Shown here: piece by piece, positions 13,854-47,326 of the stretch
Layout: every line of letters begins with the position of its first letter
Numbering within the stretch: the stretch's first letter is position 1
Source of the DNA: Clostridia bacterium
GTDB lineage: Bacteria; Bacillota; Clostridia; Christensenellales; QALW01
DNA: 53,637 bases
Direction: 5' to 3'
NCBI GenBank assembly: GCA_045536015.1
Contig: JAZSMS010000007.1
Coordinates: 1 to 53,637 of the forward strand
Position numbers and translations under genes: made by a program
The notes under the pieces: model-generated
What the model was told of the DNA's origin: nothing
The model's input: only the letters and a program-made list of their open reading frames with translations
The model's database searches: none

Positions 13854-13877
13854 CAATTTCACCATCCTAACATTAAT

Positions 13878-13906
13878 AGTATATGCAAGAAATTGGTAAA
13901 GGTCAA
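13878..13906 (-). promoter_or_regulatory. Promoter of the HTH-glmM gene
   Basis: On the minus strand: TTGACC (13906-13901), a 17-nt spacer, then TATACT (13883-13878). Confidence 0.5.
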
Positions 13907-13927
13907 GCAATTAGAGTATACCAATTT
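13890..13927. promoter_or_regulatory. Perfect 9-bp inverted repeat (AAATTGGTA-N20-TACCAATTT) bracketing the -35 hexamer; candidate operator
   Basis: aaattggta at 13890-13898 and taccaattt at 13919-13927. The -35 hexamer (13901-13906) lies between the two arms. Confidence 0.5.
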
Positions 13928-21083: not shown

Positions 21084-21113
21084 TAAAAAAAACAAGTCCG
21101 CTTTAGCGGACTT
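21084..21113 (-). terminator. Intrinsic terminator overlapping the stop codon of the phosphatase gene
   Basis: aagtccgc (21094-21101), loop ttta, then gcggactt (21106-21113). The minus-strand T-run corresponds to the plus-strand A8 at 21085-21092. Confidence 0.7.
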
Positions 21114-32674: not shown

Positions 32675-33340
32675 TTATTCTTTAAGCTTTTGAAGTGCCG
32701 CTTTTTCTATTCTGCTTACGTAAGAACGTGAAATATTGAGTTTTTGCGCTACCTCTCTTTGTGTACACGGTGCTTGCCCAAACAGTCCAAACCTGAGTGC
32801 TATAATTTTAATTTCCCTTAAATTAAGCACCTTTTTCATTTTTTTAAGCAACTTTTTATAATTTACACGCTCGTCAACGCTTGTTTCGACGTCTTTGTCG
32901 TCAGATTGTAAAATATCAAGCAAAGAGACCTCATTTCCCTCTTTATCCGTACCAAGCGGCTCGTAAAGAGAAATTTCGGCACGTTGCTTTTTGCTCGACC
33001 GCAAAAACATTAAAATTTCATTTTCTATGCACCTTGAAGCGTACGTTGCAAGATGCGCAGTCTTATCGGGATGATAAGAATTTACCGCCTTTATTAAGCC
33101 AATAGAACCTATTGAAATTAAATCGTCATTATCAACGCCTGATGCAGCATACTTTTTCGCAATATGCGCAACAAGTCTCATATTATGTTCGATAAGCTTG
33201 TTTTTAGCATCAAGGTCACCTTGCAGATTTTTTTGTATAAGCTCTTTTTCTTCTTCCTTTTTTAGCGGTTTAGGAAACGAAATTTTAATATGCCCTATTA
33301 AAAAGGGCATCTCAAGCAGTAAACTAATAAGCCATATCAT
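32675..33340 (-). CDS. sigK: Sporulation sigma factor SigK (pro-sigma-K), uninterrupted
   Basis: Refined start at ATG 33340 (GGAGG 8 nt upstream). Hydrophobic pro-sequence MIWLISLLLEMPFLIGHIKISFPKPL. SigK-like blocks LIEHNMRLVAHIAKKY, LISIGSIGLIKAV, ATYASRCIENEILM, GTDKEGNEVSLLDIL and ISRSYVSRIEK. Confidence 0.85.
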   Translation of the reverse strand: MIWLISLLLEMPFLIGHIKISFPKPLKKEEEKELIQKNLQGDLDAKNKLIEHNMRLVAHIAKKYAASGVDNDDLISIGSIGLIKAVNSYHPDKTAHLATYASRCIENEILMFLRSSKKQRAEISLYEPLGTDKEGNEVSLLDILQSDDKDVETSVDERVNYKKLLKKMKKVLNLREIKIIALRFGLFGQAPCTQREVAQKLNISRSYVSRIEKAALQKLKE

Positions 33341-33401
33341 AATTTTATACCTCCATTTGTATAAAAGATATGACACGGCTTTTTATTTTTTTACAATTTT
33401 T

Positions 33402-33982: not shown

Positions 33983-35674
33983 CTAATTAAAATAATCTTT
34001 AAGTGAAGCAAGTAGTTGTTGTTCAATTTCTCTTGCCGCATCCTTTGTTTGTGCACTTACGGAAATATATGCCTTAACCTTGGGTTCTGTTCCCGAAGGA
34101 CGAATTACAACCGAGCAGTTATCATTAAGTATAAACTTGATAACGTCTGCCTTAGGTAAGCCGTTAATGCCAAGTGAATAGTCAAGCACTTCTTCAACAT
34201 TGCGCACCTTAAAGTCAGGCGTGCTTTCTCTGAACGATTTCATTATCTGCTGCATTTTAGCAAAGCCTGCTGAGCCTTCAAATTCAAACGAATAAAGGGT
34301 ATTCAAACAATAGCCAAATTCTTCGTAAAGTCCGTTAAGTTTATCAAGCAACGAAATGCCTTTGCTTGCATAAAAAGCAAACATTTCGCAAATCAAAAAC
34401 GCCGCATTAACCGCATCTTTATCGCGAACATACGTGCCCGAGAGATATCCGTAGCTCTCTTCAAAGCCAAGAATATACGAATCTTCTTTGCCCTGCGCCT
34501 CAAGCAAACCAATCTGCTCGCCAATAAACTTAAAGCCGGTTAAAATATCAATAGTTTTAACACCGTATTTTGCAGCAATACGCTTTGCCATATCAATAGT
34601 AACTATAGTTTTAACAACAACGGGATCACTTGGCATCTTACCCATAGCAATTCTGCGCGAGCAAATAAAGTCAAGTAAAAGCATACCAACTTCGTTACCC
34701 GTTAAAAGTACGTGTTCGCCCGAAGCATCCTTAACTGCAATTCCTACGCGGTCACAGTCGGGGTCAGTAGCAAGCAAAAGGTCTGCATTGCACTTTTTTG
34801 CATAGTCAAGACCAAGTTGAAGTGCTTCTCTAATCTCGGGGTTAGGATAAGGGCAGGTTGGGAAATTTCCGTTGGGCTGTTCCTGTTCTTTAACAACGGT
34901 TATATTAGAGAATCCGCTTTCGGTAAGAGCACGCAAAACAGGTTTAAGACCGGAGCCGTTTAAAGGTGTATACACTATTGCAAGGTCTTTATTAACCTTT
35001 TCGTCGCCAAGCATTGACTGCGCCTTAACTTCATTTGTAAAGTCAGTATAAATTTGCTCGGAAATATACTCAATTTTGCCGTTTTTAACGCCTTCTTCAA
35101 AATCAATACGCTTAATATCATTAAATACGTCAAGCTTTTCAATCTCGGCTAAAATTTCCTTTGCAGCCTCAGTAGTTATCTGGCAACCGTCATTACCGTA
35201 AACCTTATAGCCGTTATATTTTGAAGGATTATGCGATGCAGTAACCATAATGCCCGAAGCACATTTAAGCGCGCGTGTAGCATAAGATAAGCACGGTGTA
35301 GGCATCAAGCAGGGATAGATGTAAACCTTTATTCCGTTTGCCGCAAAAACGCCTGAAGCAATACGTGCAAATAGATCTGACTTAATACGCGAATCATAGC
35401 TTACGGCGATACTTCTTTCCTCGGGTGCAAAATGCTTTACAACGTAGTCTGCAAGACCTTGCGAAGCCTTTGCAACTGTGTAAATGTTCATTCTGTTTGT
35501 TCCTGCACCTATAACACCTCGAAGTCCGCCTGTACCAAACTCAAGGTCGCGGTAAAACGCATCTTCTATCTTTTCTTCGTTGCCTTCTATAGCTTTAAGC
35601 TCATTTGCAACATCAATATCTTCGATTGCGTTTTTTAGCCAACGTAAGTATTCTTGTAAAAATTCTTTTTGCAT
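33983..35674 (-). CDS. pgcA: Phosphoglucomutase / phospho-sugar mutase (PgcA-like)
   Basis: Refined start at ATG 35674 (AAGGAGA 6 nt upstream). Active site TASHNPSKYNGYKVY and Mg site TDPDCDR. Confidence 0.85.
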   Translation of the reverse strand: MQKEFLQEYLRWLKNAIEDIDVANELKAIEGNEEKIEDAFYRDLEFGTGGLRGVIGAGTNRMNIYTVAKASQGLADYVVKHFAPEERSIAVSYDSRIKSDLFARIASGVFAANGIKVYIYPCLMPTPCLSYATRALKCASGIMVTASHNPSKYNGYKVYGNDGCQITTEAAKEILAEIEKLDVFNDIKRIDFEEGVKNGKIEYISEQIYTDFTNEVKAQSMLGDEKVNKDLAIVYTPLNGSGLKPVLRALTESGFSNITVVKEQEQPNGNFPTCPYPNPEIREALQLGLDYAKKCNADLLLATDPDCDRVGIAVKDASGEHVLLTGNEVGMLLLDFICSRRIAMGKMPSDPVVVKTIVTIDMAKRIAAKYGVKTIDILTGFKFIGEQIGLLEAQGKEDSYILGFEESYGYLSGTYVRDKDAVNAAFLICEMFAFYASKGISLLDKLNGLYEEFGYCLNTLYSFEFEGSAGFAKMQQIMKSFRESTPDFKVRNVEEVLDYSLGINGLPKADVIKFILNDNCSVVIRPSGTEPKVKAYISVSAQTKDAAREIEQQLLASLKDYFN

Positions 35675-35728
35675 AAAAATTCTCCTTAAACTGTTCTTTA
35701 AACAAAGCATATATGTTTTGTTTAATTA

Positions 35729-35757
35729 ATTATACCAAATTTTAGTAAATTTTTCAA
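35729..35757 (-). promoter_or_regulatory. Promoter of pgcA
   Basis: On the minus strand: TTGAAA (35757-35752), a 17-nt spacer, then TGgTATAAT (extended -10, hexamer 35734-35729). Confidence 0.5.
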
Positions 35758-35764
35758 TAATAAA

Positions 35765-36895
35765 TTAAAGTCCGATAGCTTTAAAAAATTCTGTGGCACT
35801 TTTTGTCTGTTCTCTTTTAGATTTTAACGATTTTATCTTTTTTATAGAATGAGAATTATTTCCTTTAAAAATCTTTTTTAAAATTCTAACTAACCAGAAA
35901 ACAGGCAAAAGCAACGCATATTTTTTTACAGGCGGAAAAAGTTTTTCCATATCTCTTTTTTTAGGAAAAAACAATCGCAAAAGTGTCTGCTTTTCTTTTT
36001 CTTCGTTTGCTTGAGCAAAATTAGAAAAAGAGCCAAAGCTTCCTCCTCGCACTATATAATCTGCCATAGTATCAACGTCTGCATCTTCGTTTTTATCTTC
36101 CGAAAACCAAATACGCGAAAGTGCCTCTACTTTTTTAGAAAAAACTTTAAGTCCGCCTTCACGTAATAATTCTTCTCGTTTTTCTTTATCAAAACTGATA
36201 TTATTTAATAAAAACGTATCTAAAATTGCACGTACTCCGCAGCCGCCAAGTTCAAAGTGCTTGGCAAGATGCGCAATATGGTAAAAATACGTCATTTCAT
36301 CAGTTAAGCGATATTCATTTTCGCTAACCCTAATTGCGCTATCCCACACTTTTAAAAGCACTTTATTAGCATCTTTTGCGCAAGAATCTTCTATTAAGTC
36401 GTAATGAAGCTCTATTTTGATCTTGTTTGCATCAACGAATGAAACATCGTGCGTACTGCGAGAGTTAAATGCAAAACCTGCGCCTTTTGCCACTTGCTCA
36501 GCTTTTTCTATATCCTCTGACCTTACTAAAATATCAATGTCGTCGCTAATGCGCATCCATGCTTCACCATACAAATTTTTTATAACCGCGCCTTTAAGCA
36601 AAATATATGGAATATTTGCTTTTTTTAGTGCATTTGTCATATTTTCTTGCGCTTGTTGCTGCAAAATACTTTTAAAAACAGTCTTTTTCTTTTTTTGCTG
36701 TGCAATACCAAAAAGTTTGTTTTCTTCTATTTCATTTTTTTGCAAAATATCAAAAAGCAAATGTTCAAAGCCATGCCTTTTTAAAAAGGGTAGCAAACTT
36801 TCTATATCGGATGCCGAAAGGCTTTCTTTAAAATTTTCACCAACAGCAAGTTCTTTAATTTGTTTTAAAAGTTGTAATATTTTTTCGTCAATCAT
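35765..36895 (-). CDS. Nucleotidyltransferase-fold protein (resembles the uncharacterised NTP_transf_5-type family)
   Basis: 376 aa. Pol-beta-type signature ILLKGAVIKNLYGEAWMRISDDIDILV (G-[AS]-X10-13-D-x-D), followed by HYDL and a helical C-terminal half. Confidence 0.6.
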   Translation of the reverse strand: MIDEKILQLLKQIKELAVGENFKESLSASDIESLLPFLKRHGFEHLLFDILQKNEIEENKLFGIAQQKKKKTVFKSILQQQAQENMTNALKKANIPYILLKGAVIKNLYGEAWMRISDDIDILVRSEDIEKAEQVAKGAGFAFNSRSTHDVSFVDANKIKIELHYDLIEDSCAKDANKVLLKVWDSAIRVSENEYRLTDEMTYFYHIAHLAKHFELGGCGVRAILDTFLLNNISFDKEKREELLREGGLKVFSKKVEALSRIWFSEDKNEDADVDTMADYIVRGGSFGSFSNFAQANEEKEKQTLLRLFFPKKRDMEKLFPPVKKYALLLPVFWLVRILKKIFKGNNSHSIKKIKSLKSKREQTKSATEFFKAIGL

Positions 36896-36926: not shown

Positions 36927-37664
36927 TTATGCCATTCTTGCTAAAATTATCTGCTCTGCTTCGATAAGTTCTTCGGGCGTGTTAACACCGCGAATTTCGT
37001 CACCGTCAGAAATCGGGAATAATTCTACCTTATATCCGTTTACAAGCATAAGTGCAGGAACGTCAGTAAGATAATATTCATTTTGATTATTATTGTTTTT
37101 AAGTTTAGGGAGAATATTAAAAAGTGCCTCGCTATCAAACACCGCAACACCCGAATTAAGTTCAGAAATTGCATACTGCTCTTTAGTGCAATCTTTTGCT
37201 TCAACTATGCCTGCAAATTTTCCACTTTTATCTCTTGTAATTCTTCCGTAAGATAATAATTCGGGATTAACCGCCGTCATAACCGTACACGCCGCACCCG
37301 ATTCCTCGTGTGCTTTAACCAGTGCCTCCAAAGATTCGCGTCTATAAAGTGGCATATCTCCGTAGGTTACAATAACAGAGCCCTTATATCCTTCAAATTC
37401 TTTAGCGCAGCAAGCAACTGCGTGTCCGGTACCGTTTTGTTCAAGCTGTTCAATATAATTAAACTCTGATCCAAACGCTTCTATTATCTGTTCTTTTTTA
37501 TATCCAACAACGATATACGTGTCCTTTTTTTCTACAAAGCCAACAAGTTCAAGTGCTATATCAAGCAAAGGTCTTCCGCACGCCTTGTGCATTACTTTAG
37601 GACAGTCATGCTCGGCAGAGTGAAGTCTCGTTCCCTTGCCAGCCGCCAACAAAATTGCCCTCAT
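36927..37664 (-). CDS. Sugar-1-phosphate uridylyltransferase, equivalent to the GlmU N-terminal (pyrophosphorylase) domain only
   Basis: Collinear with GlmU residues about 1-230: ILLAAGKGTRL, CPKVMHK, EQNGTGHAV, VTYGDMPL, YGRI, ELNSGVAVF, NNNQNEYYLTDV. It is 245 aa long, so the left-handed beta-helix acetyltransferase half is absent. Confidence 0.8.
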   Translation of the reverse strand: MRAILLAAGKGTRLHSAEHDCPKVMHKACGRPLLDIALELVGFVEKKDTYIVVGYKKEQIIEAFGSEFNYIEQLEQNGTGHAVACCAKEFEGYKGSVIVTYGDMPLYRRESLEALVKAHEESGAACTVMTAVNPELLSYGRITRDKSGKFAGIVEAKDCTKEQYAISELNSGVAVFDSEALFNILPKLKNNNNQNEYYLTDVPALMLVNGYKVELFPISDGDEIRGVNTPEELIEAEQIILARMA

Positions 37665-37677
37665 TTTTCCTCCACAA

Positions 37678-38808
37678 TTATAATAAATTTAATTCTTTAC
37701 GTATCTTTAAAGTTATTCTTTCTATCTCGCCTGCTTTTTCTTCCATATCGGCAATAAGTTTTAACTGTGTTCTTGCTCTATCAAGATTTTGTTTTGCACG
37801 ATGAATAATATAATAAGTGTCACCGTTAATATAATCGGTTAAAAATCTTATTCCGTCTTCAATAGTAATTATTCTGGATGCCCAAGGAAGAAGTTCTATT
37901 TCTTCTTTAGTCATAATCTCGCCACAGCTTTCTAAAAAGCCGCGCGTATATTTTTCATACAATTCTAAGTTACAAGATACCCTTGATAAATCACGTTCGT
38001 CGTCACACGCAGTATTGGTACCTATGCGAAGACTGTCACCATAATCGTACAATAACGATGACGGCATAACGGTATCTAGATCGATTACCGCAACCGGCAT
38101 ATTAGTATCTTTATCAAACAAAATATTGTTTAAATTTGTATCATTATGCGTAATACGCGTTGGAATGCGGCCTTCCTCAAGTGCCGATGAAATCATCTTC
38201 ATAATTCCGGTATGGTTGCGAATAAATTCTATCTCCGGCATAACTTCATGCACACGCTCTGCATGGTCTTCTTTTATTGCCCTTTCTAAATCAAGATAAC
38301 GCGAGTAAGTATTATGAAAATTGGGTATTGTTATATTTATCTTTTTTGGATCAATATCACTAACGTCACAGATAAATTTACCAAAACTTTTACCGCAAAG
38401 ATAAAACACCTCTGGGTTTTCGGGAATATCCATCGTATAAACGTGCGAAAAATACGTCATCATTCGCCAACAACCCGTATCTGTTTTAAGATAATCTTCG
38501 CCCGACAACGTTTTGACAATCATCGGAATACTGCCCAATTTATCTCTGTGCCCTTCAAGTAAAAACTTTTCGTGTAAATGCTCTGTTATAAGCACGAAAT
38601 TTTGCATAAGAGCATCCATATCTCTGAAAACGTTTGTATTAACTCTTTGAAGTGTATATCTGTGTCGCTGACCGTCTTCAGTATACGTTTCTACCAAAAA
38701 TGTACGGTTAATATAGCCATTGCCAATATTACGTATGATTTTAACTTTTCCTTTAATTTTAAACTGTCTTGCGATAAGTTCTTTATCGCTTACAAAAACT
38801 TCGGGCAT
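37678..38808 (-). CDS. nahK: N-acetylhexosamine 1-kinase (NahK-like anomeric sugar kinase, APH fold)
   Basis: Blocks recalled from Bifidobacterium NahK: RITHNDTNLNNILFD, VIDLDTVMPSS, YDYGDSLRIG, RFLTDYINGDTYY, NLDRARTQLKLIADMEEKA. SD GGGAGA lies 6 nt before the ATG. Confidence 0.8.
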   Translation of the reverse strand: MPEVFVSDKELIARQFKIKGKVKIIRNIGNGYINRTFLVETYTEDGQRHRYTLQRVNTNVFRDMDALMQNFVLITEHLHEKFLLEGHRDKLGSIPMIVKTLSGEDYLKTDTGCWRMMTYFSHVYTMDIPENPEVFYLCGKSFGKFICDVSDIDPKKINITIPNFHNTYSRYLDLERAIKEDHAERVHEVMPEIEFIRNHTGIMKMISSALEEGRIPTRITHNDTNLNNILFDKDTNMPVAVIDLDTVMPSSLLYDYGDSLRIGTNTACDDERDLSRVSCNLELYEKYTRGFLESCGEIMTKEEIELLPWASRIITIEDGIRFLTDYINGDTYYIIHRAKQNLDRARTQLKLIADMEEKAGEIERITLKIRKELNLL

Positions 38809-38895: not shown

Positions 38896-38924
38896 ATGAT
38901 AGCATATTTTGTATTGCTCGTCAA
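38896..38924 (-). promoter_or_regulatory. Promoter of the nahK / uridylyltransferase / NTase operon
   Basis: On the minus strand: TTGACG (38924-38919), a 17-nt spacer, then TGcTATCAT (hexamer 38901-38896). The leader is about 85 nt. Confidence 0.5.
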
Positions 38925-39040
38925 TATAAATATCAAAAAACTACTGTATTTACGGCTTTTTTACATTTTTTACACTTTAATACAAAAAAGGTTTCCTTTT
39001 GTTAAGAATGACTTCCTATTAACAAAATATTCATTTTTTC

Positions 39041-39074
39041 CAAAAATAAACAAACCAACCATTTGGTTGGTTTG
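39041..39074 (-). terminator. Intrinsic terminator immediately after the small peptide gene
   Basis: 10-bp stem caaaccaacc (39051-39060) / ggttggtttg (39065-39074) with loop attt. A minus-strand U-rich tract follows (plus-strand ccaaaaataaa, 39041-39050). The hairpin begins 15 nt after the stop codon. Confidence 0.75.
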
Positions 39075-39088
39075 ATAACTTTTTATTA

Positions 39089-39199
39089 TTAATCTATTTG
39101 TACATAAGTAACTTCTGTCTCAGCACCAGAGCTATAATTTAAAACATCCGAAGCTTCTATCTTAATAACTTTAACCTCAGGCTTAACGTAACCTTTCAT
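39089..39199 (-). CDS. 36-aa candidate RiPP precursor peptide MKGYVKPEVKVIKIEASDVLNYSSGAETEVTYVQID
   Basis: Too short for the ORF track. ATG 39199-39197, TAA 39091-39089, SD GAGG (39210-39207) 7 nt upstream. It has its own consensus promoter and terminator. A YxxPxV motif occupies residues 4-9. It lies divergent to and adjacent to a PqqD gene. Confidence 0.7.
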   Translation of the reverse strand: MKGYVKPEVKVIKIEASDVLNYSSGAETEVTYVQID

Positions 39200-39255
39200 A
39201 ACAAAACCTCACTAACATTTTAATATGTTCGAGTACAAATTCATAAGTTATTTTT

Positions 39256-39284
39256 ATTATAACCTAACACCTATTAGTAGTCAA
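39256..39284 (-). promoter_or_regulatory. Consensus sigma-A promoter of the small peptide gene
   Basis: On the minus strand: TTGACT (39284-39279), a 17-nt spacer, then TATAAT (39261-39256). Confidence 0.65.
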
Positions 39285-39389: not shown

Positions 39390-39662
39390 ATGAAACTTAA
39401 AAAAGGTTTTGTTCTTCGTAAGGTTGCTGGAATGACGGTTGTTACTGCTACAGATTCTACCTGTGATTTTGATGGTATGATAACTTTAAACGAATCAGCA
39501 GAGTTAATGTGGAACAGACTTATTCTTGGTGCCACGATCTCTGACCTTGCCGACATCTTACTTAGCGAATATGACGTTGATAAACAAACTGCTATCAATG
39601 ATGCATCTGATTTTGTAAAACTTCTTAAAGAAAACGGAATTTTAGATGAAAGTACCAATTAA
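39390..39662 (+). CDS. PqqD-family protein (RiPP recognition element / peptide chaperone)
   Basis: Refined start at ATG 39390 (GGAGGA 39378-39383). The 90-aa sequence ITLNESAELMWNRLILGATISDLADILLSEYDVDKQTAINDASDFVKLLKENGIL matches the PqqD winged-helix pattern. Confidence 0.8.
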   Translation: MKLKKGFVLRKVAGMTVVTATDSTCDFDGMITLNESAELMWNRLILGATISDLADILLSEYDVDKQTAINDASDFVKLLKENGILDESTN

Positions 39663-40114: not shown

Positions 40115-41008
40115 ATGATAAGAAAAAAAACAAAAGGTATAATTCTTGCAGGCGGCAAGGGCACTCGCCTTTATCCTATGACAAAAGTTGTTTCTAAACA
40201 GCTTTTATCTGTTTACGATAAGCCACTTATCTACTATCCCCTCTCTACACTTTTCCTTGCAGGAATTGACGAAATTTTAATAATTTCAACGCCTGAAGAT
40301 ACACCAAATTATCAGCGCCTTTTAGGTGACGGTTCTTCGCTTGGTGTCCGTTTTGAATATGCCGTTCAGGATAAGCCCCGAGGTCTTGCCGATGCATTTA
40401 TCATTGGCGAAAAGTTTATTGGTGAAGATAACGTTTGTCTTGTTTTAGGCGACAACGTATTTTATGGTCAAAACTTCTCGCAATTATTATTCAAGGCAAA
40501 GGCAAACGAAAGCGGTGCAACTGTTTTTGGCTACCCTGTTTCTGACCCACGCGCTTTTGGCGTTGTTGAATTTGACGAAAACCTTAAGGTTGTATCCTTA
40601 GAAGAAAAGCCTGCCGAACCAAAGAGCCCCTACGCAGTTCCCGGACTTTATTTTTATGATAACAACGTTGTTGAAATTGCTAAAAACGTTCAGCCTTCTC
40701 CTCGAGGTGAAATTGAAATTACAGCAATTAACAACGAGTATCTTCGCAGGGGCGAGCTTAACGTTGTTTTAATGGGCAGAGGTATGGCTTGGCTTGATAC
40801 CGGTACACCACAAGGTATGCTCACTGCTGCAACGTACGTTCAGTCAATTCAGTCACTTCAGGGCTTTTATATTTCTTGTATAGAAGAAATTGCATGGCGT
40901 CGCGGCTTTATCTCTACCGAGCAATTAATGGCACTTGGCAAGGAGTTAGAATCTACCGAATATGGAAAATACATAATCAACCTTGCTATAAAGGATAGAA
41001 AATTTTGA
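40115..41008 (+). CDS. rfbA: Glucose-1-phosphate thymidylyltransferase (RmlA/RfbA)
   Basis: Refined start at ATG 40115 (GGAGG 40105-40109). Motifs [54 protein letters not shown]. No rmlB, rmlC or rmlD in the window. Confidence 0.9.
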
Positions 41009-41697
41009 TTAAAACCTATAAAATTGCCGACTTAAAATTAAATATTGACGCATCTTCAATTACCGCACGCAATGGAAAAAAATACGAGGTTGAATTTGAC
41101 CCGAGCGCTATCGAATTAAAATTTTCACCCGAAGCGGCAAAGCGTTTTATTGACGCACACCCTACTGCAGAAATTGAAGATTGGGACTATTTTTTACACG
41201 GTGCAAAATTTTCTTCACTAATGTTAGAAAACGACGGCTTTGTCTTTCACTCATCCGCCATTGCACTTGACGGTCAGGCATTTTTATTCTCTGCTAATTC
41301 AGGTGTAGGCAAATCAACGCACACAAAGCTTTGGAAAAAGGTTTTTGATGACGTTGTTTATATCAATGACGATAAGCCCGCAATTCGCCTTAAAAACGGT
41401 TTATTTTACGTCTACGGCACCCCATGGAGCGGCAAAAGCACGTTAAATTCAAACATTTGCGTTCCTCTTAAGGCAATTTGCTTTATTGAGCGTGCAAAAA
41501 TTAATTCTATCCGCAAGTTAACTCCATTTGAAGCGCTTCCCCGTTTGCTTGAACAGACGATGCGCAAAGCAGGCGAAACAAAAACTGCACGTCTTTTAGA
41601 GTTGTTAGACGTTTTATTAACAACAACACCAATATATTTATTATCATGTCTTCCCAATGAAGACGCGGCAAAACTTGCACACGATACAATGATTTAA
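41005..41697 (+). CDS. HprK-related P-loop kinase-like protein
   Basis: [28 protein letters not shown] follows the pattern of HPr kinase C-terminal / HprK-related kinases (hHAsav...G.a.lf.G.SG.GKST). TTG start at 41005 overlaps the rfbA TGA stop (41006-41008). Confidence 0.6.
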
Positions 41698-41758: not shown

Positions 41759-41775
41759 AAACTGAGGTGATTTAT

Positions 41776-41940
41776 TTGGACGTTTGCTGCATCTGTCAAA
41801 AGGAAAAGCGGGATAATCTTTACATTTTAGGAAAATTAATTTGCGATGATTGTGAGTGGCGCATTTTAAAAGCAAAGGCACATGAGAAATCCTATACACA
41901 CTATTCAAACGGTTTAAAAAAACTTATATGCCAAAAATAA
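41776..41940 (+). CDS. csfB: Anti-sigma-G factor Gin (CsfB)
   Basis: Not on the ORF track. TTG start at 41776, 6 nt after GAGGTGA. The 54-aa product is MDVCCICQKEKRDNLYILGKLICDDCEWRILKAKAHEKSYTHYSNGLKKLICQK. It aligns with B. subtilis CsfB: CVICDQEK...LY.KFICLDCE...Y.FY...LK. Confidence 0.8.
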   Translation: MDVCCICQKEKRDNLYILGKLICDDCEWRILKAKAHEKSYTHYSNGLKKLICQK

Positions 41941-41980
41941 AAACGGTTCAGCTTTTTTGCTGAACCGTTTATTATTTTTT
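41941..41980. terminator. Bidirectional terminator between csfB and the ABC operon
   Basis: cggttcagc (41944-41952), loop tttttt, then gctgaaccg (41959-41967), flanked by A- and T-runs. Confidence 0.8.
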
Positions 41981-43025
41981 AACCTACCATACCTGATCTT
42001 TCGATACTCTGAACAAAGAATCTCTGGCCAAAGCAATATAAAATTACGATAGGTGCAACGTGCATAACCGTACAAGCAGACTGGTAAAGCGAGTTTAAAA
42101 CTGTGTCGCCCTGTATCTGCAATACGCTTGTTACATATGCCGAACCGGCTTCACCAATCTTAGTCGCCATAACCTTTGCCGTGGGGTTTAGCATAGCAAT
42201 ATAGTAAGTATCGTTATACTGCCAAACTATTGCAAAAAGTAAAACCGTAACAAGCATCGGAAGTGCACTTGGAAGCATAACCTGAACAAACGTTCTGAAA
42301 GGACCTGCACCATCGATATATGCAGCTTCTTCAAGTTCTTTGGGCTGGTTAATAAAGTACTGACGAAGCAGGAATATAAACAAGCCGTTACGATACATAG
42401 TAGCTGTTGCCGAAAGCAAACCAATTGCAGTCCAACCGCGAGTTAAATCAATGTTAGGTATTCTATAAAGCTCTTCACCAAATGTAAACATATACATGGG
42501 GTTAAAAGCCTTATATCTGAAAAACATAGCGTAGGTAAGCATCTGAATCGGTACCATAAGTGTAAAGATACACATAAGGAACATAAAGTTGTTACCCTTA
42601 AATTTAAAGCGAGCAAGACCATAAGCTACTACGGTACAAGAACACATCTGTAAAAGGCCAAACCCTATCGAAGTTAAAAACGAATTAAGATAAAGACTTG
42701 GAATATCAGCAAATTTCCACATTGCAACGTATGCGTTAAAATTAATTGTTTTAGGAATAAGTATTACAGTTGGATCATACACGTCTGCACGCGTCATAAA
42801 CGAGGTTATAATCGTTATGAGCATAGGATATATGATAAGATACGCAATACCAATAAGTAAAACTGCTCTTAAAGCACCCCAAAGAATTGAAAACGTACGT
42901 TTTCCAAGTACTACTTTTTTAAACTTTTGCCACTTTGTAAGTGTAGGCGGTACATAGTGATCAACTTCTTCTGCACCAACTTCATTGAACTTTTTAAGTT
43001 CTTCTTTAATAGCCATACTATGCAC
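41979..43025 (-). CDS. Carbohydrate ABC transporter permease (MalG-like) with a 50-aa N-terminal extension
   Basis: Six TM segments and the EAA loop EEAAYIDGAGPFRTFVQVMLP. Confidence 0.85.
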   Translation of the reverse strand: MHSMAIKEELKKFNEVGAEEVDHYVPPTLTKWQKFKKVVLGKRTFSILWGALRAVLLIGIAYLIIYPMLITIITSFMTRADVYDPTVILIPKTINFNAYVAMWKFADIPSLYLNSFLTSIGFGLLQMCSCTVVAYGLARFKFKGNNFMFLMCIFTLMVPIQMLTYAMFFRYKAFNPMYMFTFGEELYRIPNIDLTRGWTAIGLLSATATMYRNGLFIFLLRQYFINQPKELEEAAYIDGAGPFRTFVQVMLPSALPMLVTVLLFAIVWQYNDTYYIAMLNPTAKVMATKIGEAGSAYVTSVLQIQGDTVLNSLYQSACTVMHVAPIVILYCFGQRFFVQSIERSGMVG

Positions 43026-43031
43026 CTCCCT

Positions 43032-43916
43032 TTAATTCTCGTAGTAAACAAGCTTGGACATAATCCATGCAACAATACTGATTACTATTGCAGTGATTAA
43101 GAAATACGTCCAGCTCATAGCCATAATTTCTACCTGGTCAACTTCTTTAACCTTATACAAATAATCAAGCATTGGGTTGTTCATACTACAAAGAACTTCA
43201 ATTAAAGTATAAATGGTGTTAACCAAAATCATAGGGCTTATCATCGGGAATGTTATCTTCCAGAAGTTTTCCCAAGCGGTAGCACCTTCAACCTTTGAAG
43301 ATTCAAATATCGAAGGCGATATGGTTTGCAGACCTGCAAGGAATATAAGTATCGGAACGCCCGAAGCATTTAATATAACCGTTAATTGATCAAACGCTCC
43401 GCTTATTATATTACCAAACGTGCCGCCAAGCGACGCTTTAATATTACCTGCAACGTTCATAGATTGTGCGCCAAGCGCCGCCATTTGTGATTGGTCAACA
43501 CCGACATCTTTTCCTAAAAGCGTAGCAGCAACACCTGCTGAAGTAATAACAGGCATAAACAAGATAGCTCTTGCCAACGTTCTTCCATGGAAATTCTGGT
43601 TTAAAACGTTTGCCATAAGGAAGCTAAATATCAATATACAGGGTACCTGCACTATCATATTTAACCCCGAAGCCTCTAACCTATCAATAAAGTGAGGTTG
43701 AATTACGTTTTCATATGCTTTAAATCCATAAGATTCGATATTGGTAATTCCGGTAACACCGTCAAAAACCTCTACGTTAAATGAAAGTACCAATGCAGTA
43801 TAAATAGGTGATAAAACAAAGAATATAAAACCAAGAAGGAACGGGAGAATGAAAAGCCATCCGTTTAATGAACGTCTTGTCATAAGCCCTAATTTATAAG
43901 TCCTAGGCTTTTTCAT
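43032..43916 (-). CDS. Carbohydrate ABC transporter permease (MalF-like)
   Basis: EAA-like loop ESSKVEGATAWENFWKITFP in a polytopic protein. Confidence 0.85.
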   Translation of the reverse strand: MKKPRTYKLGLMTRRSLNGWLFILPFLLGFIFFVLSPIYTALVLSFNVEVFDGVTGITNIESYGFKAYENVIQPHFIDRLEASGLNMIVQVPCILIFSFLMANVLNQNFHGRTLARAILFMPVITSAGVAATLLGKDVGVDQSQMAALGAQSMNVAGNIKASLGGTFGNIISGAFDQLTVILNASGVPILIFLAGLQTISPSIFESSKVEGATAWENFWKITFPMISPMILVNTIYTLIEVLCSMNNPMLDYLYKVKEVDQVEIMAMSWTYFLITAIVISIVAWIMSKLVYYEN

Positions 43917-46675
43917 TATTTAACTCCCCCCTTTGCAAAATCTTCTGCCTTAACTACTGTACCATCTTCGGCAATGTAGTCAGTTTCGCCATAGTTTACG
44001 TAAACTACAACGCCATTACTATAAGTAACCTTGTTAACGTTTTCACTAAGAATTTCGTGTGAAGCAATAAGTGCTGACGAAGTATCCTTAAGTAAATCGT
44101 TATATTTCTTATACATTTCAATAGCGTCATCAAGCCACGAAACGTAACTAAGCGAATACATACCTTCAAAAACAAGGTCCTTAACCTTATCGTTATTTTC
44201 ATAACACCAACGATAATATAAACCGGAACCTGCTTCAATAGCCTGAAGATATACAAGTGTAGGATCGCCATTTAAGTTAATAGGCTCACCCGAATACTCA
44301 ATACTTCCGTGAATTACCATCTGATAGAACGGTACCGAAGCGTCGGCAAGGTTAAAGTTACTGCTTGTATTGCTAATTTCAAAAATAGAATCTACGTAAG
44401 GAAGAATATATGAATTAACACCCTTGCCCATTACGTTAAGTTCTTCAGAATAAAGTTTTGCAACTTCAGCATATACCTTTGAAACTTCATCTCTATCCCA
44501 GAAGTCATTTACCTTATAGTTGCCCGAAAGATGCTGTGACATACTTCCAAGACTTACGCCCTTAATGCCATATTCAACAAGGTCTTCTAATACCTTATTT
44601 GCGTTTCCGCTTGCATTTTCAGCTTTTCTTACGTTATAAATAGCCGAAGGCGAAACAATTGTTGCAGTATTGCTCTTTCCGTATGCAGTAGAGCTTGCAA
44701 ACATATTGGCCGCAACAGCCTGCTCATAAGCTTTTTTACTGATTGGGTCGTACTGATAATGATAAGCAATATCTCTTGTTACCATTCTTGATGCATCGTT
44801 TAAGGAGCTATATCCATCAAAGGCTGTATCTTTATACACATACATAAGCTCGGTTTCGAAATAAAGATTTACACCAAGTTCATCAGCTAAAGCTTGTAAT
44901 GATGCCAAGCCCTTTTTGCCGCCAAGTTCTTTAAGAACTTTTACCTTGTTGTATACAGAGTTTCTAAGACCGTTATTTGCCCAAGCTTTGTAGTTAACAG
45001 AAATATTTTTAACTCCTGCTTCACTAAGCTTTTTAATAAGCTCACCACACTGCTCAAACGTAGTTATTGCCTTCATCTCGGTATAACCAACACCAAGGAA
45101 AGCAGTATCGTGGTTATATGCACCAACAAGTTCAATATTAAAGGGAATGTCAGTAAACTTCTTTTGTGTAAGTGCGCCTTTATCAATAAGATAATCTCTG
45201 TAATATTCTGCCATACCGCTATAATTAGCCTTTTCGTTAGCTAAAACGGTATATGAAATCGATATATCGGCAGAGTTCATCTCATTTTGATAAATAAGTG
45301 CTGCTTTTGAAGCATTTGAAAACTGAAGTTCATCATACTCATAAAGTCTGAACTGCGAGTAGCATCTGTTTCTGTCAATAATATTTTTATTTTTGCCAGC
45401 TATGTCAGCAATAATCGTTGCGTTAGCATTACCACTTTCAATTATAGCAAACAATGCTGAACTTGCCTTTTTAATACCAAATACAGGCAACGAAGCCGTT
45501 TGATTCTTAAAGGGCTGACGAAGTCTTGCAAGACCGTCATCAAGGCCGTAAAGCTGAAGCTTAACAGCACCGTTAATGTTTGTTTTACCATTATTGAAGT
45601 TAACAATAGCGCCCGAACCATCAGGAACAAACATGTAACCTTGCTCTTGTCTTGACGCCGAACCAAAATACTGAAGAAGCGTTATATCATTAATCGCAAA
45701 TTCAGATTTGTCAAAAGAAATTTCATCATTAGGAATTGTTGCAGTAAGACCGTTTTCAGTTAAAACGTAGTCAAGCGGGATCCAGAAAGTTTTTGCATCT
45801 TCTTTTACAACACCAAAAGTCTCGTCAATTTCATTACGCTCTTCTAAGGTCATACCTACTTCTACTAAAGCATTCTGAAGCTGTGTCATAACACGTCCGT
45901 TATTCCACTTTGTAGGTTCACCTATAAGATAAAGCGTTTGACCTCCTTCAATATATTCCTCTATTTCAGGAGCAATTTGTAAAAGCTCTTCACGTCTGTC
46001 TTCAGGATAAGAATTCCAAACGGCAGGCGAAAGTTTTGAATAAACGTTACCACCGCTTATGTATTTAGAAACGGCAAGATAACCTGCATCCTTAAGCTTT
46101 TGAATATAAGATTCTGCTACCTCACTTGTCATACAGGTAGGAATAATATAGTCAGGTTTAATTAAACCAAGAATGTAGATAACTCTTAAATGGCCTTCGT
46201 GTTCAACAATATGGAACTGTTTAACACCATTTTTAAGAGACTCTTCCGTCTGGTTTAAAATGCAGTCCATATACGTTTCAAGAGTTTTTCTACTACCCTC
46301 TGTCTTATTAAAATAATACAGTGAAATCTGACTGCTCATTTCGCTTTTAATACCGGCATCGCGTTCAGATTTAGAGGGGTTTGAATACCATACGTCACCG
46401 GTACTCTTTTCAACTAAAGCAAACTCAAGAATCTCTTCGTTGAAATAAAACTCGTAATTCTTGTTTTCTTCAACAAGCTTAAATGTAGTATTATTTTCTG
46501 CAATAACTTCTTCTCTGATATGCACCTTTTCTGAAGAGAATTTATATTCAGGATCAGTATTGGTTGGTGTGATATAACCCGTATCCTCTTGAGGGGCACA
46601 TCCTGTAAACGAAAGCACAGGAATTGCTAATACAAAAACGAGTAATAAGGAAATAATTATTTTTGACTTTTTCAC
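43916..46675 (-). CDS. 919-aa lipoprotein of unknown function
   Basis: Signal plus lipobox MKKSKIIISLLLVFVLAIPVLSFTGC. No motif I can assign. The TAATG junction overlaps the downstream permease start by 1 nt. Confidence 0.7.
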   Translation of the reverse strand: MKKSKIIISLLLVFVLAIPVLSFTGCAPQEDTGYITPTNTDPEYKFSSEKVHIREEVIAENNTTFKLVEENKNYEFYFNEEILEFALVEKSTGDVWYSNPSKSERDAGIKSEMSSQISLYYFNKTEGSRKTLETYMDCILNQTEESLKNGVKQFHIVEHEGHLRVIYILGLIKPDYIIPTCMTSEVAESYIQKLKDAGYLAVSKYISGGNVYSKLSPAVWNSYPEDRREELLQIAPEIEEYIEGGQTLYLIGEPTKWNNGRVMTQLQNALVEVGMTLEERNEIDETFGVVKEDAKTFWIPLDYVLTENGLTATIPNDEISFDKSEFAINDITLLQYFGSASRQEQGYMFVPDGSGAIVNFNNGKTNINGAVKLQLYGLDDGLARLRQPFKNQTASLPVFGIKKASSALFAIIESGNANATIIADIAGKNKNIIDRNRCYSQFRLYEYDELQFSNASKAALIYQNEMNSADISISYTVLANEKANYSGMAEYYRDYLIDKGALTQKKFTDIPFNIELVGAYNHDTAFLGVGYTEMKAITTFEQCGELIKKLSEAGVKNISVNYKAWANNGLRNSVYNKVKVLKELGGKKGLASLQALADELGVNLYFETELMYVYKDTAFDGYSSLNDASRMVTRDIAYHYQYDPISKKAYEQAVAANMFASSTAYGKSNTATIVSPSAIYNVRKAENASGNANKVLEDLVEYGIKGVSLGSMSQHLSGNYKVNDFWDRDEVSKVYAEVAKLYSEELNVMGKGVNSYILPYVDSIFEISNTSSNFNLADASVPFYQMVIHGSIEYSGEPINLNGDPTLVYLQAIEAGSGLYYRWCYENNDKVKDLVFEGMYSLSYVSWLDDAIEMYKKYNDLLKDTSSALIASHEILSENVNKVTYSNGVVVYVNYGETDYIAEDGTVVKAEDFAKGGVK

Positions 46676-46681
46676 TTCTGA

Positions 46682-47326
46682 TTACCTCCTTAACTCAAGT
46701 TCACGATATATTGTGTAGATAAAGTTCCAGATTTCTTGGACAAGATAAAAGAACAATACCCCTACGAATACTATAATTGCCATACCAAGTAAAATTACAA
46801 AAATTGAAATAATGGTCTTAACACCGGAATATTGGTGCGTTGTCATAGTACCCATAAATAATAAGATTGCCGTCCAACCAATACCTAAAACAGTAACAAG
46901 TGAAACTATTGTTGCTTCATTAGTTGTTAAAATATTTGTAAGTAAAAGAAGAAGGGTTTGCGAAATTACAACCGGCAACATCGAATAACCGGTGTAAATC
47001 AGAATATCTCTCATACTTCCTTCACCATCAAAAAGGGTTGTAAAGCCCCAGTTTGCCAAAACCCAAATAGTAACTATTAAAAATACCGAAGTAAAGGTAC
47101 CAATAATATCAATATCTTGTGGGAAAACAGCAAAAGTATTAAAAGTATATCCGTTAAACTGCTTATTAAGAATATCTGTTATTACGTAAAGCACAAAAAG
47201 CAAAACTGCGATATAGGCTCTGCCCCTTTTCTCGTGCTTTAAATCCCAGAAACCGTCTGCAGGATGCGAGGCAACGTGAAATACATATTTAAAATCAGCG
47301 CCAAATGTTTTAAGTTTTTCTATCAT
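46682..47326 (-). CDS. Yip1-like polytopic membrane protein
   Basis: 214 aa with five TM segments after a short cytoplasmic N-terminus (HPADGFWDLKHEKRG). Overlaps the upstream gene by 4 nt. Confidence 0.6.
   Translation of the reverse strand: MIEKLKTFGADFKYVFHVASHPADGFWDLKHEKRGRAYIAVLLFVLYVITDILNKQFNGYTFNTFAVFPQDIDIIGTFTSVFLIVTIWVLANWGFTTLFDGEGSMRDILIYTGYSMLPVVISQTLLLLLTNILTTNEATIVSLVTVLGIGWTAILLFMGTMTTHQYSGVKTIISIFVILLGMAIIVFVGVLFFYLVQEIWNFIYTIYRELELRR

Follow-up and report, generated by a model that had tools for sequence, protein, structure and literature searches.

A 36-codon gene and its expression signals

The window, by which we mean the whole 53.6-kb stretch of DNA that was analysed, contains a small minus-strand gene flanked by genes for candidate modifying enzymes. 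Divergently from it lie genes for a discrete PqqD-type protein, a signal-peptidase homologue, glucose-1-phosphate thymidylyltransferase (RmlA) and an HprK-like kinase; on its own strand it is followed by genes for a homologue of N-acetylhexosamine 1-kinase (NahK), a GlmU-like nucleotidyltransferase, an NTP_transf_5 protein and a member of the phosphoglucomutase/phosphomannomutase family (Table 1).

Table 1 Features of the peptide locus, with positions in the window and the evidence for each
Feature	Position	Strand	Evidence
LppA-like precursor peptide gene	39089..39199	(-)	orthologous small ORFs in L002, L004, L005; leader pS > pN
Predicted leader, residues 1-16 (MKGYVKPEVKVIKIEA)	39152..39199	(-)	shared register; homology to LppA cleavage site
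Predicted core, residues 17-36 (SDVLNYSSGAETEVTYVQID)	39092..39151	(-)	hypervariable in orthologues
Sigma-70-type promoter of peptide gene (TTGACT, 17 nt, TATAAT)	39256..39284	(-)	top site locally; hexamers conserved
Shine-Dalgarno GAGG, 7 nt 5' of ATG	39207..39210	(-)	sequence; purine-rich G block retained in alignment
Intrinsic terminator: 10-bp stem, 4-nt loop, T-run	39041..39074	(-)	local scan, folding energy, conservation
Discrete PqqD-type RiPP recognition element (LppB-like), 90 aa	39390..39662	(+)	PF05402, E 4e-14
Soluble archaeal-type (Ser/His) signal-peptidase homologue (putative LppS-like leader peptidase), 139 aa	39646..40065	(+)	TIGR02228 top match
Glucose-1-phosphate thymidylyltransferase RmlA	40115..41008	(+)	TIGR01207, 459.7 bits vs cutoff 360.65
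HprK-like kinase (ScmC family, LppK-like), 230 aa	41005..41697	(+)	weak TIGR04249, TIGR04352 matches; model
Separate promoter of enzyme operon (TTGACG, 17 nt, TG-n-TATCAT)	38896..38924	(-)	local promoter scan
N-acetylhexosamine 1-kinase (NahK) homologue	37678..38808	(-)	PF01636; syntenic in L002, L004
Sugar-1-phosphate nucleotidyltransferase, like GlmU N-terminal half	36927..37664	(-)	NF010934, TIGR01173
NTP_transf_5 protein (LppN/PsmN-like)	35765..36895	(-)	PF14907, E 3e-38, 132 bits
Phosphoglucomutase/phosphomannomutase family protein	33983..35710	(-)	profile matches; syntenic in L002, L004

The small ORF (39199..39089; 36 codons plus stop) translates in the window as MKGYVKPEVKVIKIEASDVLNYSSGAETEVTYVQID. 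Exact look-up of this peptide returned a single match, one short, near-identical contig; no Pfam or NCBIfam model matched it, and the PDB held no sequence match. Four of the peptides carry no public name and one is called 'hypothetical protein'. A preliminary description of this DNA had placed the ORF, a GAGG 7 nt upstream of it and a promoter at 39284-39256, and we found all three there. The promoter scored 11/12 and was the highest-scoring promoter-like site in a 4-kb scan. It is one of four sites with at most one mismatch to the consensus on both strands of the window, where shuffles predicted 0.56; not one of 100 shuffles gave as many as four. TTGAC and TATAAT of this promoter are invariant in an alignment of four syntenic loci. 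The terminator hairpin (39074-39051, followed by the T-run) begins 15 nt past the stop codon, as had been described, and has a folding energy of -17.6 kcal/mol (z = -5.1 against shuffles). The terminator is palindromic with an upstream A-run and can thus act bidirectionally. It had been thought to attenuate read-through into the enzyme genes, a role that is unneeded because a separate, conserved promoter precedes the enzyme operon; its TTGAC and extended -10 element are kept in L002 and L004.

Three syntenic metagenome loci (L002, L004 and L005) were found to carry the small ORF that the preliminary description had proposed to look for at the equivalent position; these orthologues read MKSYVKPEVKVIKLESTDALLLSTTIDQDQIP, MKNYVKPEVKVIKIESKDVLNIGLSTVYTEDNYA and MKKYISPKVDVIKIVVEDILTASETIYEEDMIE. 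All three retain both promoter hexamers (-35 and -10), the start codon ATG, the leader reading frame and the terminator hairpin, the last with base changes that preserve pairing. As the neighbouring peptidases of these loci are just 60-71% identical, this conservation goes beyond chance. Over the first 20 codons, comparison of the orthologous ORFs gave a pS of 0.48-0.93 against a pN of 0.08-0.34, a synonymous to non-synonymous ratio of ~2.4 to 12, and the 3' half of the ORF diverges in sequence and length yet remains open in the same frame. The high pS relative to pN in the leader, together with the hypervariable C-terminal part, indicates a translated precursor gene rather than a small RNA. 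On this sequence evidence, the 36-codon ORF is real and translated, its leader being conserved and its core variable, and its earlier designation as a monocistronic precursor-peptide gene is supported.

Neighbouring enzymes and related Clostridial loci

The description of linear polyphosphorylated peptides (LPPs) dates from May 2026; it concerned Bacilli, and a single cluster was tested (Popov et al., Nat Commun 2026, PMC13381572). The reference cluster is lppA-K-B-S-D-N of Paenibacillus alginolyticus, and the cluster definition uses TIGR02228, TIGR04249, TIGR04352 and NTP_transf_5 (PMC13381572). We took the LppA, LppB and LppS sequences for comparison from Supplementary Data 1 of that paper. 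The PqqD gene of the window lies 190 nt from the peptide gene on the opposite strand (ATG at 39390), as reported before. The closest solved structures to its product are the lasso B1 proteins TfuB1 and TbiB1; a phmmer search with the window protein did not retrieve the LppB crystal-structure chains. N34 and D71 of the window protein, which correspond in the alignment to N33 and D70 of LppB, do not vary among seven homologues. In the LppB crystal structure, N33 and D70 hold the YxxP leader of LppA (Popov et al., Nat Commun 2026, PMC13381572). That the window protein retains this Asn and Asp supports the earlier claim that YxxP of the adjoining peptide is a PqqD recognition motif.

The peptidase gene begins before the PqqD gene has ended. 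The best NCBIfam match of the peptidase is TIGR02228, below the cutoff of that model, and its alignment with LppS (BLASTP E 4e-7, 29% identity over 94 residues) places S29 and H64 on the catalytic S29 and H68. All the homologues aligned have S29, H64, D79 and E85. D93, the third of the catalytic residues in LppS, is matched by Thr84, beside the invariant Glu85, which leaves the triad uncertain. A structure model shows a LexA/SpsB (signal-peptidase) fold with an N-terminal helix; the corresponding helix of LppS contacts the recognition protein (PMC13381572). In the sequence similarity network of Popov et al. (PMC13381572), whose edges are drawn at E below 1e-23, LppS belongs to cluster 1. Of three representatives compared with the window peptidase by pairwise BLASTP, a cluster 9 member was closest (E 7e-14), with E values of 6e-8 for a cluster 4 member and 4e-7 for LppS. 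Cluster 9 is listed under 'RRE others', precursor not determined (Popov et al., PMC13381572). The window peptidase has the fold of SipW and the Sec11-type (S26B) signal peptidases and, like them, a Ser set in a G-x-S-M-x-P box, a His where bacterial enzymes have Lys, and a G-D-N box. Unlike them, it lacks an N-terminal membrane anchor and has an N-terminal helix, and its proposed substrate is a cytoplasmic leader presented by the recognition protein instead of a signal peptide.

The kinase scores far under the cutoffs of its families (25 versus 125 bits for TIGR04249, and 16 versus 200 bits for TIGR04352), and PF27840 is recorded for a protein 98% identical to it. Its AlphaFold model (pLDDT 94.9) has the HprK/P structures 1kkm, 1knx and 1jb1 as top PDB matches, and the P-loop G100-x-G-K-S-T is invariant among the homologues aligned. 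HPr-rel-A and SynChlorMet cassettes (NCBIfam/TIGRFAM families HprK_rel_A and ScmC) have the PqqD-like ScmD and PqqD_rel_X as partners. The window likewise pairs a PqqD-like protein with an HprK-related kinase, but it differs from these cassettes in the low scores of the kinase and in that no radical SAM/SPASM genes are present in the window. A literature search on ScmC returned unrelated acronyms only, and one on PF14907 together with RiPP found nothing.

The RmlA gene overlaps the kinase gene by 4 nt. Its probable start is the ATG 12 nt 3' of the TTG (40103) given in the ORF list, because the RmlA gene calls in L002, L004 and L005 are 297 aa long. The order PqqD-RmlA-kinase recurs in L002-L005, L076-L079 and L081. 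On the minus strand, the NahK homologue matched PDB entries 4ocu, 4wh1 and 4ocj with E values of 2e-82 to 7e-81, and the GlmU-like transferase matched NF010934 and TIGR01173 at model positions 1-240 only, the acetyltransferase domain being absent. The phosphoglucomutase gene has its own near-consensus promoter (35729-35757); its synteny suggests that it belongs to the cluster.

The domain scan of the window covered every ORF of at least 150 aa except five shorter than 210 aa. Among the ORFs scanned we found no lasso cyclase (Asn-synthetase-like macrolactam synthetase), in line with the preliminary description, no transglutaminase-like B2 protease and no MsbA-type exporter (ABC_membrane plus ABC_tran). 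Neither a lasso cyclase nor a B2 protease is annotated in the 16-kb syntenic loci L002 and L004, and neither was recognisable in the 22 most widespread gene families, each present in at least 4 of 72 Clostridial loci (families not Pfam-scanned).

The triad of kinase, PqqD-type protein and peptidase recurs in 68 Clostridial genomes; of the related loci, 33 have an ABC exporter and at least 21 an NTP_transf_5 gene. About 25 of the triad loci are adjoined by small ORFs with an M-K-x-Y-x-K-P leader, and more distant relatives have the same type of divergent small ORF. Precursors were searched with a leader HMM, which replaced a plain M..Y..P regular expression that gave many false positives; in L080, L081 and L082, no precursor could be recognised directly 5' of the PqqD gene. 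In sister loci the peptide, PqqD, RmlA and kinase are present and the peptidase and NTP_transf_5 gene are both absent, so cleavage and glycosylation may be optional or carried out elsewhere.

Predicted leader, cleavage site and core of the peptide

Near its N terminus the peptide carries Y4-V-K-P7-E-V9, in which Y4 and P7 form the recognition motif. The register Y-x-x-P-x6-[F/I/L/V]-x-x is common to the 21 tabulated Clostridial precursors, and in three of these it ends in F-E-T or F-D-T. LppS with LppB cleaves LppA after F-E-T (PMC13381572). At the corresponding positions (-3, -2 and -1), the predicted leader has I14-E15-A16. We infer that the leader is cleaved after Ile14-Glu15-Ala16, at a site homologous to F-3/E-2/T-1 of LppA. 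One of two cleavage sites suggested earlier, I-E-A|S (16/17), corresponds by homology to the F-E-T|A site that experiments mapped in LppA; the other, S-G-A|E (26/27), is without comparative support. A leader of about 20 residues had also been proposed: a leader with a YxxP motif is borne out, and a length of 16 residues is more likely by homology.

In all orthologues the core is acidic, with many hydroxyl residues and a hypervariable sequence. Of the 10 window-like precursors compared, all from peptidase-bearing loci, 8 have a Ser 19 residues past the Tyr, and the residue at this position in the window, Ser23 (39131-39133), appears to be the best candidate phospho-acceptor. It is core position 7; core position 3 is Val. 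LppK polyphosphorylates core Ser3 and requires a Ser there, having accepted neither Thr nor Tyr (PMC13381572). The phosphorylation or glycosylation of the core that the preliminary description envisaged fits the adjoining HprK-like kinase, NTP_transf_5 protein and sugar-nucleotide genes.

Probable relationship to LPPs and a proposed pathway

Four of the five LPP core genes are present in the window: those for the PqqD-type protein, the Ser/His signal-peptidase homologue, the HprK-like kinase and NTP_transf_5. As in LPP clusters, the discrete PqqD-type protein adjoins an archaeal-type signal-peptidase homologue with no cyclase, polysaccharide or sugar genes lie in the vicinity, and the precursor joins an N-terminal Y-x-x-P-x-V to a C terminus that is hypervariable, with Glu at -2 between a hydrophobic residue (-3) and a small one (-1). 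There are also differences. The window leader is spaced P-x6-I-E-A and that of LPPs P-x9-F-x-T/A (the P-x6 register also holds in the Clostridial precursors found). The core is ~20 residues long and acidic, with a conserved Ser at position 7 and none at position 3, whereas the LPP core is 45 residues long, rich in Gly/Asn/Pro and basic. No MsbA-like exporter (LppD) was found among the ORFs scanned, the precursor gene is divergent and monocistronic instead of first in an operon, and an RmlA gene is inserted, coupled to that of the kinase, with NahK, the GlmU-like transferase and phosphoglucomutase adjoining. The peptidase is 29% identical to LppS and closer to cluster 9, and the host belongs to the Clostridia, the published hosts being Bacilli. 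We consider it about 80% probable that the 36-codon gene encodes an LppA-type precursor of a linear modified RiPP, a Clostridial relative of the LPP system. Since the LPP family is already published, the window system would be a Clostridial branch or relative of that pathway and not new in kind.

The lasso peptides paeninodin and pseudomycoidin resemble this system in three respects. Their HprK-like kinase (PadeK or PsmK) acts on a precursor Ser; recognition of a [Y/W]-x-x-P leader falls to a split B1-type protein; and in pseudomycoidin an uncharacterised NTP transferase (PsmN), grouped with NTP_transf_5 in PMC13381572, is needed for a hexose on the phosphate, PsmK and then PsmN adding phosphate and then hexose to the lasso peptide. 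By contrast, the ORFs scanned in the window include no macrolactam synthetase and no B2 cysteine protease, the leader motif has Tyr and not Trp, the peptide ends in Ile-Asp with no C-terminal Ser, and its leader would be removed by a predicted serine peptidase. A lasso precursor served by a macrolactam synthetase and B2 protease elsewhere in the genome, with the local PqqD protein as B1, would account for the Y-x-x-P-x-V leader, which is a general lasso recognition motif, and for the similarity to TfuB1 and TbiB1, and more than half of LPP-bearing bacteria carry lasso clusters too. However, neither cyclase nor B2 protease was found in any of the sets surveyed above, and we rejected this reading. 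The gene whose start overlaps the PqqD gene encodes a signal-peptidase homologue and not a B2 protease, and the peptides of the window, L002, L004 and L005 share no register that combines Thr at -2 with a Gly/Ala/Ser/Cys start and an Asp/Glu at core 7-9. We regard a lasso product as very improbable.

Two further readings set the enzymes aside. The gene could encode a small acidic protein with a role of its own, for example regulatory or sporulation-linked, that is no substrate of the PqqD protein, kinase or peptidase; its own promoter and terminator, and the nearby presence of gin (anti-sigma-G) and of a gene for a sigma factor, would suit such a role. Its conserved part, however, is exactly the Y-x-x-P leader bound by PqqD-type proteins, and the remainder is hypervariable, the pattern of a precursor and unlike a folded small protein. 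Unrelated cores with the same leader adjoin the same enzyme set in dozens of genomes, and a separate function appears improbable. A short unit with a strong promoter and terminator could also be an untranslated small regulatory RNA, and a csRNA match was seen on the opposite strand, sub-threshold with 27 bits and E 0.29 (gathering score 57). No Rfam family reached threshold, and the ATG and ribosome-binding site are conserved. Conserved nucleotides without a conserved frame had been named beforehand as the sign of an sRNA; the frame is instead kept, with pS above pN in the leader and a divergent 3' half that stays open. Given pS versus pN and Rfam, we rejected the sRNA, which is the least credible of the readings weighed here.

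Read as an LPP relative, the locus suggests the following pathway. The peptide gene would be transcribed alone into an RNA of ~200 nt, from the strong sigma-A-type promoter to the intrinsic terminator, both of which are observed and conserved. The divergently encoded PqqD-type protein would bind Tyr4-x-x-Pro7 of the leader, as its conserved Asn34 and Asp71 and the LppB-LppA crystal structure suggest. By analogy with LppK, PadeK and PsmK, the HprK-like kinase would then place at least one phosphate on a core serine, Ser23 being the best candidate, and the NTP_transf_5 protein would next add a sugar to the phosphate, a step modelled on PsmN genetics and gene content. Sugar donors could come from cluster enzymes, RmlA yielding dTDP-glucose and NahK with the GlmU-like transferase yielding UDP-HexNAc. 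The soluble Ser/His peptidase, with its substrate presented by the recognition protein, would remove the leader after Ile14-Glu15-Ala16, as at F-E-T of LppA. The predicted product is a ~20-residue acidic phospho(glyco)peptide, and no dedicated exporter was found among the ORFs scanned in the window.

We hold only tentatively, and think it rather unlikely, that the sugar-nucleotide enzymes are part of the peptide pathway, so that the product would be a short acidic peptide with a Ser-O-phospho-sugar derived from dTDP-glucose and/or UDP-HexNAc. RmlA, which is translationally coupled to the HprK-like kinase, does stay with the peptide and the PqqD protein even where a locus has lost both peptidase and NTP_transf_5 genes. 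No activity of LppN was seen in the heterologous system used for the published LPP cluster (PMC13381572). The window has sugar-activation genes beside its NTP_transf_5 gene, which makes dTDP-glucose and UDP-HexNAc candidate donors for the second modification. If this reading is true, it would identify the missing substrate behind the silence of LppN in that system and would also make direct action of the RmlA-like enzyme on the phosphopeptide conceivable. The variant in the window is compact, and its 20-residue core is small and easily tracked by mass spectrometry. Together, the window and the ~70 related loci show that the LPP-type combination of enzymes, and the leader logic that goes with it, occur widely among uncultured Clostridia of gut and rumen, apparently in signal-peptidase and recognition-protein clusters that the LPP authors did not assign; their leader register is shorter, and their cores fall into several unrelated families.

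Translation of the divergent small gene

Every element that the preliminary description assigned to the peptide gene is present: the 36-codon ORF, the GAGG, the promoter, the terminator hairpin and the PqqD gene, which starts on the opposite strand 190 nt from the ATG. Across both strands of the window, four sites depart from TTGACA-N17-TATAAT by no more than one base (0.56 expected), and 0 of 100 shuffles reached four. The hairpin has a folding energy of -17.6 kcal/mol (z = -5.1) and, judging from the A- and T-runs on either side of it, could stop transcripts arriving from either direction.

Through homologues of the neighbouring peptidase we reached syntenic metagenome contigs. Small ORFs occupy the same position and orientation in L002 (MKSYVKPEVKVIKLESTDALLLSTTIDQDQIP), L004 (MKNYVKPEVKVIKIESKDVLNIGLSTVYTEDNYA) and L005 (MKKYISPKVDVIKIVVEDILTASETIYEEDMIE). 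A DNA alignment of the window and the syntenic loci shows no variation in the ATG, the -35 TTGAC or the -10 TATAAT, and each locus has the terminator hairpin, with base changes that preserve pairing. Over codons 1–20, the proportion of synonymous differences is 0.48–0.93 and that of non-synonymous differences 0.08–0.34; past codon 20, length and composition vary between loci and the same frame stays open. The conserved frame, the synonymous excess and the open, variable 3' part are the signature of a translated precursor, and on this pattern of substitution the gene is one, its leader conserved and its core hypervariable. Loss of the small ORF or its frame in related loci, named in the preliminary description as evidence against a peptide, is not seen in these three.

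The promoter–terminator unit might also be read as an sRNA gene, which the synonymous versus non-synonymous pattern and the conserved frame rule out. The sole match in an Rfam search, a sub-threshold csRNA hit driven by the palindromic terminator, lies on the strand opposite to the peptide gene.

Features of the window and of related Clostridial loci (L-numbers)
Feature	Coordinates	Strand	Remarks
Precursor ORF	39199..39089	minus	Product MKGYVKPEVKVIKIEASDVLNYSSGAETEVTYVQID
Shine-Dalgarno GAGG	7 nt before ATG	minus	Read from sequence
Promoter TTGACT-17-TATAAT	39284-39256	minus	11/12; top promoter-like site of local scan
10-bp terminator hairpin, then T-run	39074-39051	minus	Begins 15 nt past peptide stop
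csRNA match	39001-39077	plus	27 bits, gathering score 57; E 0.29
PqqD	39390-39662	plus	PF05402, E 4e-14
S24/S26-like peptidase, 139 aa	39646-40065	plus	Top NCBIfam model TIGR02228, archaeal-type signal peptidase
RmlA	40115-41008	plus	TIGR01207, 459.7 bits, above cutoff
P-loop protein (HprK-like kinase), 230 aa	41005-41697	plus	Weak TIGR04249 (ScmC) and TIGR04352 (HprK_rel_A) matches
N-acetylhexosamine 1-kinase (NahK) homologue	Downstream of peptide gene	minus	PDB 4ocu, E 2e-82
Nucleotidyltransferase like GlmU N-terminal half	Downstream of peptide gene	minus	
NTP_transf_5 protein	Downstream of peptide gene	minus	PF14907, E 3e-38
Phosphoglucomutase	Downstream of peptide gene	minus	
nahK operon promoter	38924-38896	minus	Extended -10, conserved
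Phosphoglucomutase gene promoter	35729-35757	minus	Among the window's four near-consensus promoters
Gin/CsfB (anti-sigma-G)	41767-41940	plus	Directly 3' of kinase
Sigma-70-family sigma factor	32675-33376		
Second phosphoglucomutase/phosphomannomutase	12219-13910	minus	N-terminal HTH_3 (XRE-type) DNA-binding domain, unusual fusion
CpsB-like phosphatase, P-loop (AAA_31/ParA-type) ATPase, Wzz chain-length genes	21112-23196	minus	ATPase in CpsD's place; ~16 kb from cluster
Right flank	41979-49125	minus	Two sugar-ABC permeases, DUF5696 (919 aa), Yip1-domain protein, NHL-repeat protein
RmlA–kinase pairs	Window 40115-41697; L076 4016-5877; L077 7831-9702; L078 7707-9705; L081 456-2300		4-nt gene overlap
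MKKYTKPTVEVVELSV-KESLSALPTGF...(I/V)(T/S)IYxxxS precursors	L006 5064-5240; L032 14629-14808; L033 9420-9590; L042, L043, L044, L050, L052, L058, L059, L065		
MKNYEKPxAEVLLFRLAEV... precursors	L021 4994-5140; L022 8441-8590; L066 8424-8579; L051 8479-8640; L086 5112-5300		
NTP_transf_5 homologue with repeats	L054 10363-12549		

Neighbouring enzymes and the LPP family

The plus-strand PqqD, peptidase, RmlA and kinase genes run away from the peptide gene; the start of the peptidase gene overlaps the end of the PqqD gene, and RmlA and kinase genes overlap by 4 nt. The kinase model (pLDDT 94.9) best matches HprK/P catalytic domains (1kkm, 1knx, 1jb1, 2qmh), then related PEP carboxykinases. The peptidase model (pLDDT 81) has an N-terminal helix, lacks a membrane anchor and matches LexA, UmuD' and the signal peptidase SpsB. 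The nahK operon and the phosphoglucomutase gene have promoters of their own, making the enzyme genes independent of the attenuated read-through previously proposed. Among the window ORFs scanned with Pfam (all of at least 150 aa, minus five below 210 aa), we found no transglutaminase-like protease, no MsbA-type exporter and, in agreement with the preliminary description, no Asn-synthetase-like cyclase.

Linear polyphosphorylated peptides (LPPs) were described by Popov et al. (Nat Commun 2026, PMC13381572). By definition an LPP cluster encodes five proteins: LppS, a homologue of archaeal-type signal peptidases; LppB, a discrete recognition protein; LppK, an HprK-like kinase; LppN, of the NTP_transf_5 type; and LppD, an MsbA-like pump. 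The precursors (LppA) span 35-200 aa; their N-terminus, YxxPxVLxHQxIxFETxxS, is conserved, and the C-termini vary (PMC13381572). The window has four of these five core enzymes (peptidase, recognition protein, kinase and NTP_transf_5) and a YxxP leader, but its precursor spacing differs from the published one, it has no Ser at core position 3 and there is no exporter. TIGR02228, TIGR04249, TIGR04352 and NTP_transf_5, all in the LPP domain tables (PMC13381572), also match window proteins.

We compared the window proteins with LPP sequences from Supplementary Data 1 of PMC13381572. In the LppB–leader crystal structure, Asp70 hydrogen-bonds the leader Tyr and Asn33 fixes the kink at Pro (PMC13381572); D71 and N34 of the PqqD protein align with these residues and are invariant in seven homologues. 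The peptidase aligns with LppS (E 4e-7), S29 on S29 and H64 on H68, and its close family keeps S29, H64, D79 and E85 invariant. D93, which completes the catalytic triad of LppS, is aligned with Thr84, adjoining E85, so its counterpart here is uncertain. Set against LppS and one representative each of SSN clusters 9 and 4, the peptidase is nearer to the Ruminococcus member of cluster 9 (E 7e-14) than to LppS; the cluster 4 member gave E 6e-8. In both clusters the co-located recognition protein is 'RRE others' and the precursor was not determined (PMC13381572), and on this affinity the window probably belongs to a Clostridial branch that the study noticed and did not analyse.

The precursor interpretation of the preliminary description holds in its main points, supported by the conserved leader, variable core and LPP-type neighbours. 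We put at roughly 80% the probability that the peptide is a precursor which depends on the recognition protein and is processed by the kinase and peptidase encoded beside it. As a category the system is already known: this is an uncharacterised and divergent variant of the LPP family in Clostridia.

Predicted cleavage and acceptor sites

LppS cuts after F-3/E-2/T-1 and requires LppB, and in a heterologous host LppK places up to four phosphates on core Ser3 (PMC13381572). Phe lies ten residues past the Pro in LppA (P-x9-F), whereas Clostridial leaders, which run Pro, six residues, then F/I/L/V, are shorter by three. In three of these leaders the hydrophobic site reads F-E-T or F-D-T, which supports aligning I14-E15-A16 with F-E-T. 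By homology, the leader would be residues 1–16, with a predicted cut at I-E-A|S and a predicted core of SDVLNYSSGAETEVTYVQID. This coincides with the first of two sites proposed earlier; the second, S-G-A|E, lacks comparative support.

Core position 3 is then Val, so the LppK Ser3 rule is not transferable. The best candidate acceptor is Ser23, as 8 of the 10 window-like precursors that we compared from loci with a peptidase have a Ser 19 residues past the Tyr. Were the leader instead cut off after Leu20, at the conserved [D/E]-h-[L/I], this Ser would come to core position 3, matching LppA, but Leu/Ile would then stand at -1 and Asp at -3, unlike the LppS site. We hold the I-E-A|S cut and Ser23, as specific sites, with much lower confidence than the precursor reading.

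Sugar genes and the Clostridial branch

In the window sub-branch a dedicated promoter and terminator frame the precursor gene, which is divergent and monocistronic; RmlA sits between peptidase and kinase, overlapping the kinase gene, and the exporter is absent. L002 and L004 share with the window a syntenic block of NahK, GlmU-like transferase, NTP_transf_5 and phosphoglucomutase, and both add a CapD-like dehydratase. Distant relatives (kinases 50-54% identical) have only a divergent small ORF, PqqD, RmlA and kinase; peptidase and NTP_transf_5 are missing from their loci. Their small ORFs (MKKKYLNPEIDIVEIKNNVSLQDESAILEEDFTD; MKKQYTSPEVEVLELKNASILTEVLEEGGFDDVTPEES; MRKEYTKPEIDAYDF...) have a YxxPE leader, and this arrangement looks like a minimal form of the system. 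Since these reduced loci keep RmlA, it appears to be a core partner of the kinase in the window lineage.

LppN showed no activity in the heterologous host, and its authors suspected a missing partner or rare substrate (PMC13381572). PsmN, the transferase of the pseudomycoidin pathway, adds a hexose onto phosphoserine. Together with this precedent, the RmlA–kinase association suggests, from gene content, a phosphoglycosylated product, and the cluster's sugar genes name candidate donors for an LppN-type enzyme.

The Gin/CsfB gene has the same position in L002, L004, L005 and L078, and the host is probably a spore-former. The right flank is syntenic in L002, L076 and L078, marking the same chromosomal site. 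Wzz/kinase and CpsB-like genes recur in six related loci, which, with those ~16 kb from the window cluster, echoes the association of LPP clusters with capsule loci that has been reported.

Surveying one genome per species gave 68 loci, and gut or rumen Clostridia MAGs supplied almost all of them. In most, the genes run kinase, PqqD, peptidase; an ABC exporter directly follows the peptidase in 33, NTP_transf_5 is added in at least 21 (once, in L054, fused, after a hydrophobic segment, to a long C-terminal region of G-x-Y/W-x-G repeats resembling MORN repeats) and a CapD-like dehydratase in 15. With a leader HMM we located small ORFs at about 25 loci; their cores fall into several families: the window type, MKKYTKPTVEVVELSV-KESLSALP... 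(11 loci), MKNYEKPxAEVLLFRL... and ...IEFET-EDVITTSG... types. Common to all is Y-x-x-P, six residues, then F, I, L or V. Genes of the MKKYTKPTVEVVELSV family follow an ABC exporter and a ~221-aa secreted protein, their loci encode a conserved ~346-aa protein (no Pfam match on record) upstream of PqqD, and the third residue of their predicted core is Ser, like that of LppA. MKNYEKP-type genes immediately precede the kinase gene and encode Gly/Asp/Asn-rich tails.

These loci extend the newly described LPP family into gut Clostridia, and the compact window cluster, with its built-in sugar-donor genes, offers a route to working out the unexplained second LPP modification.
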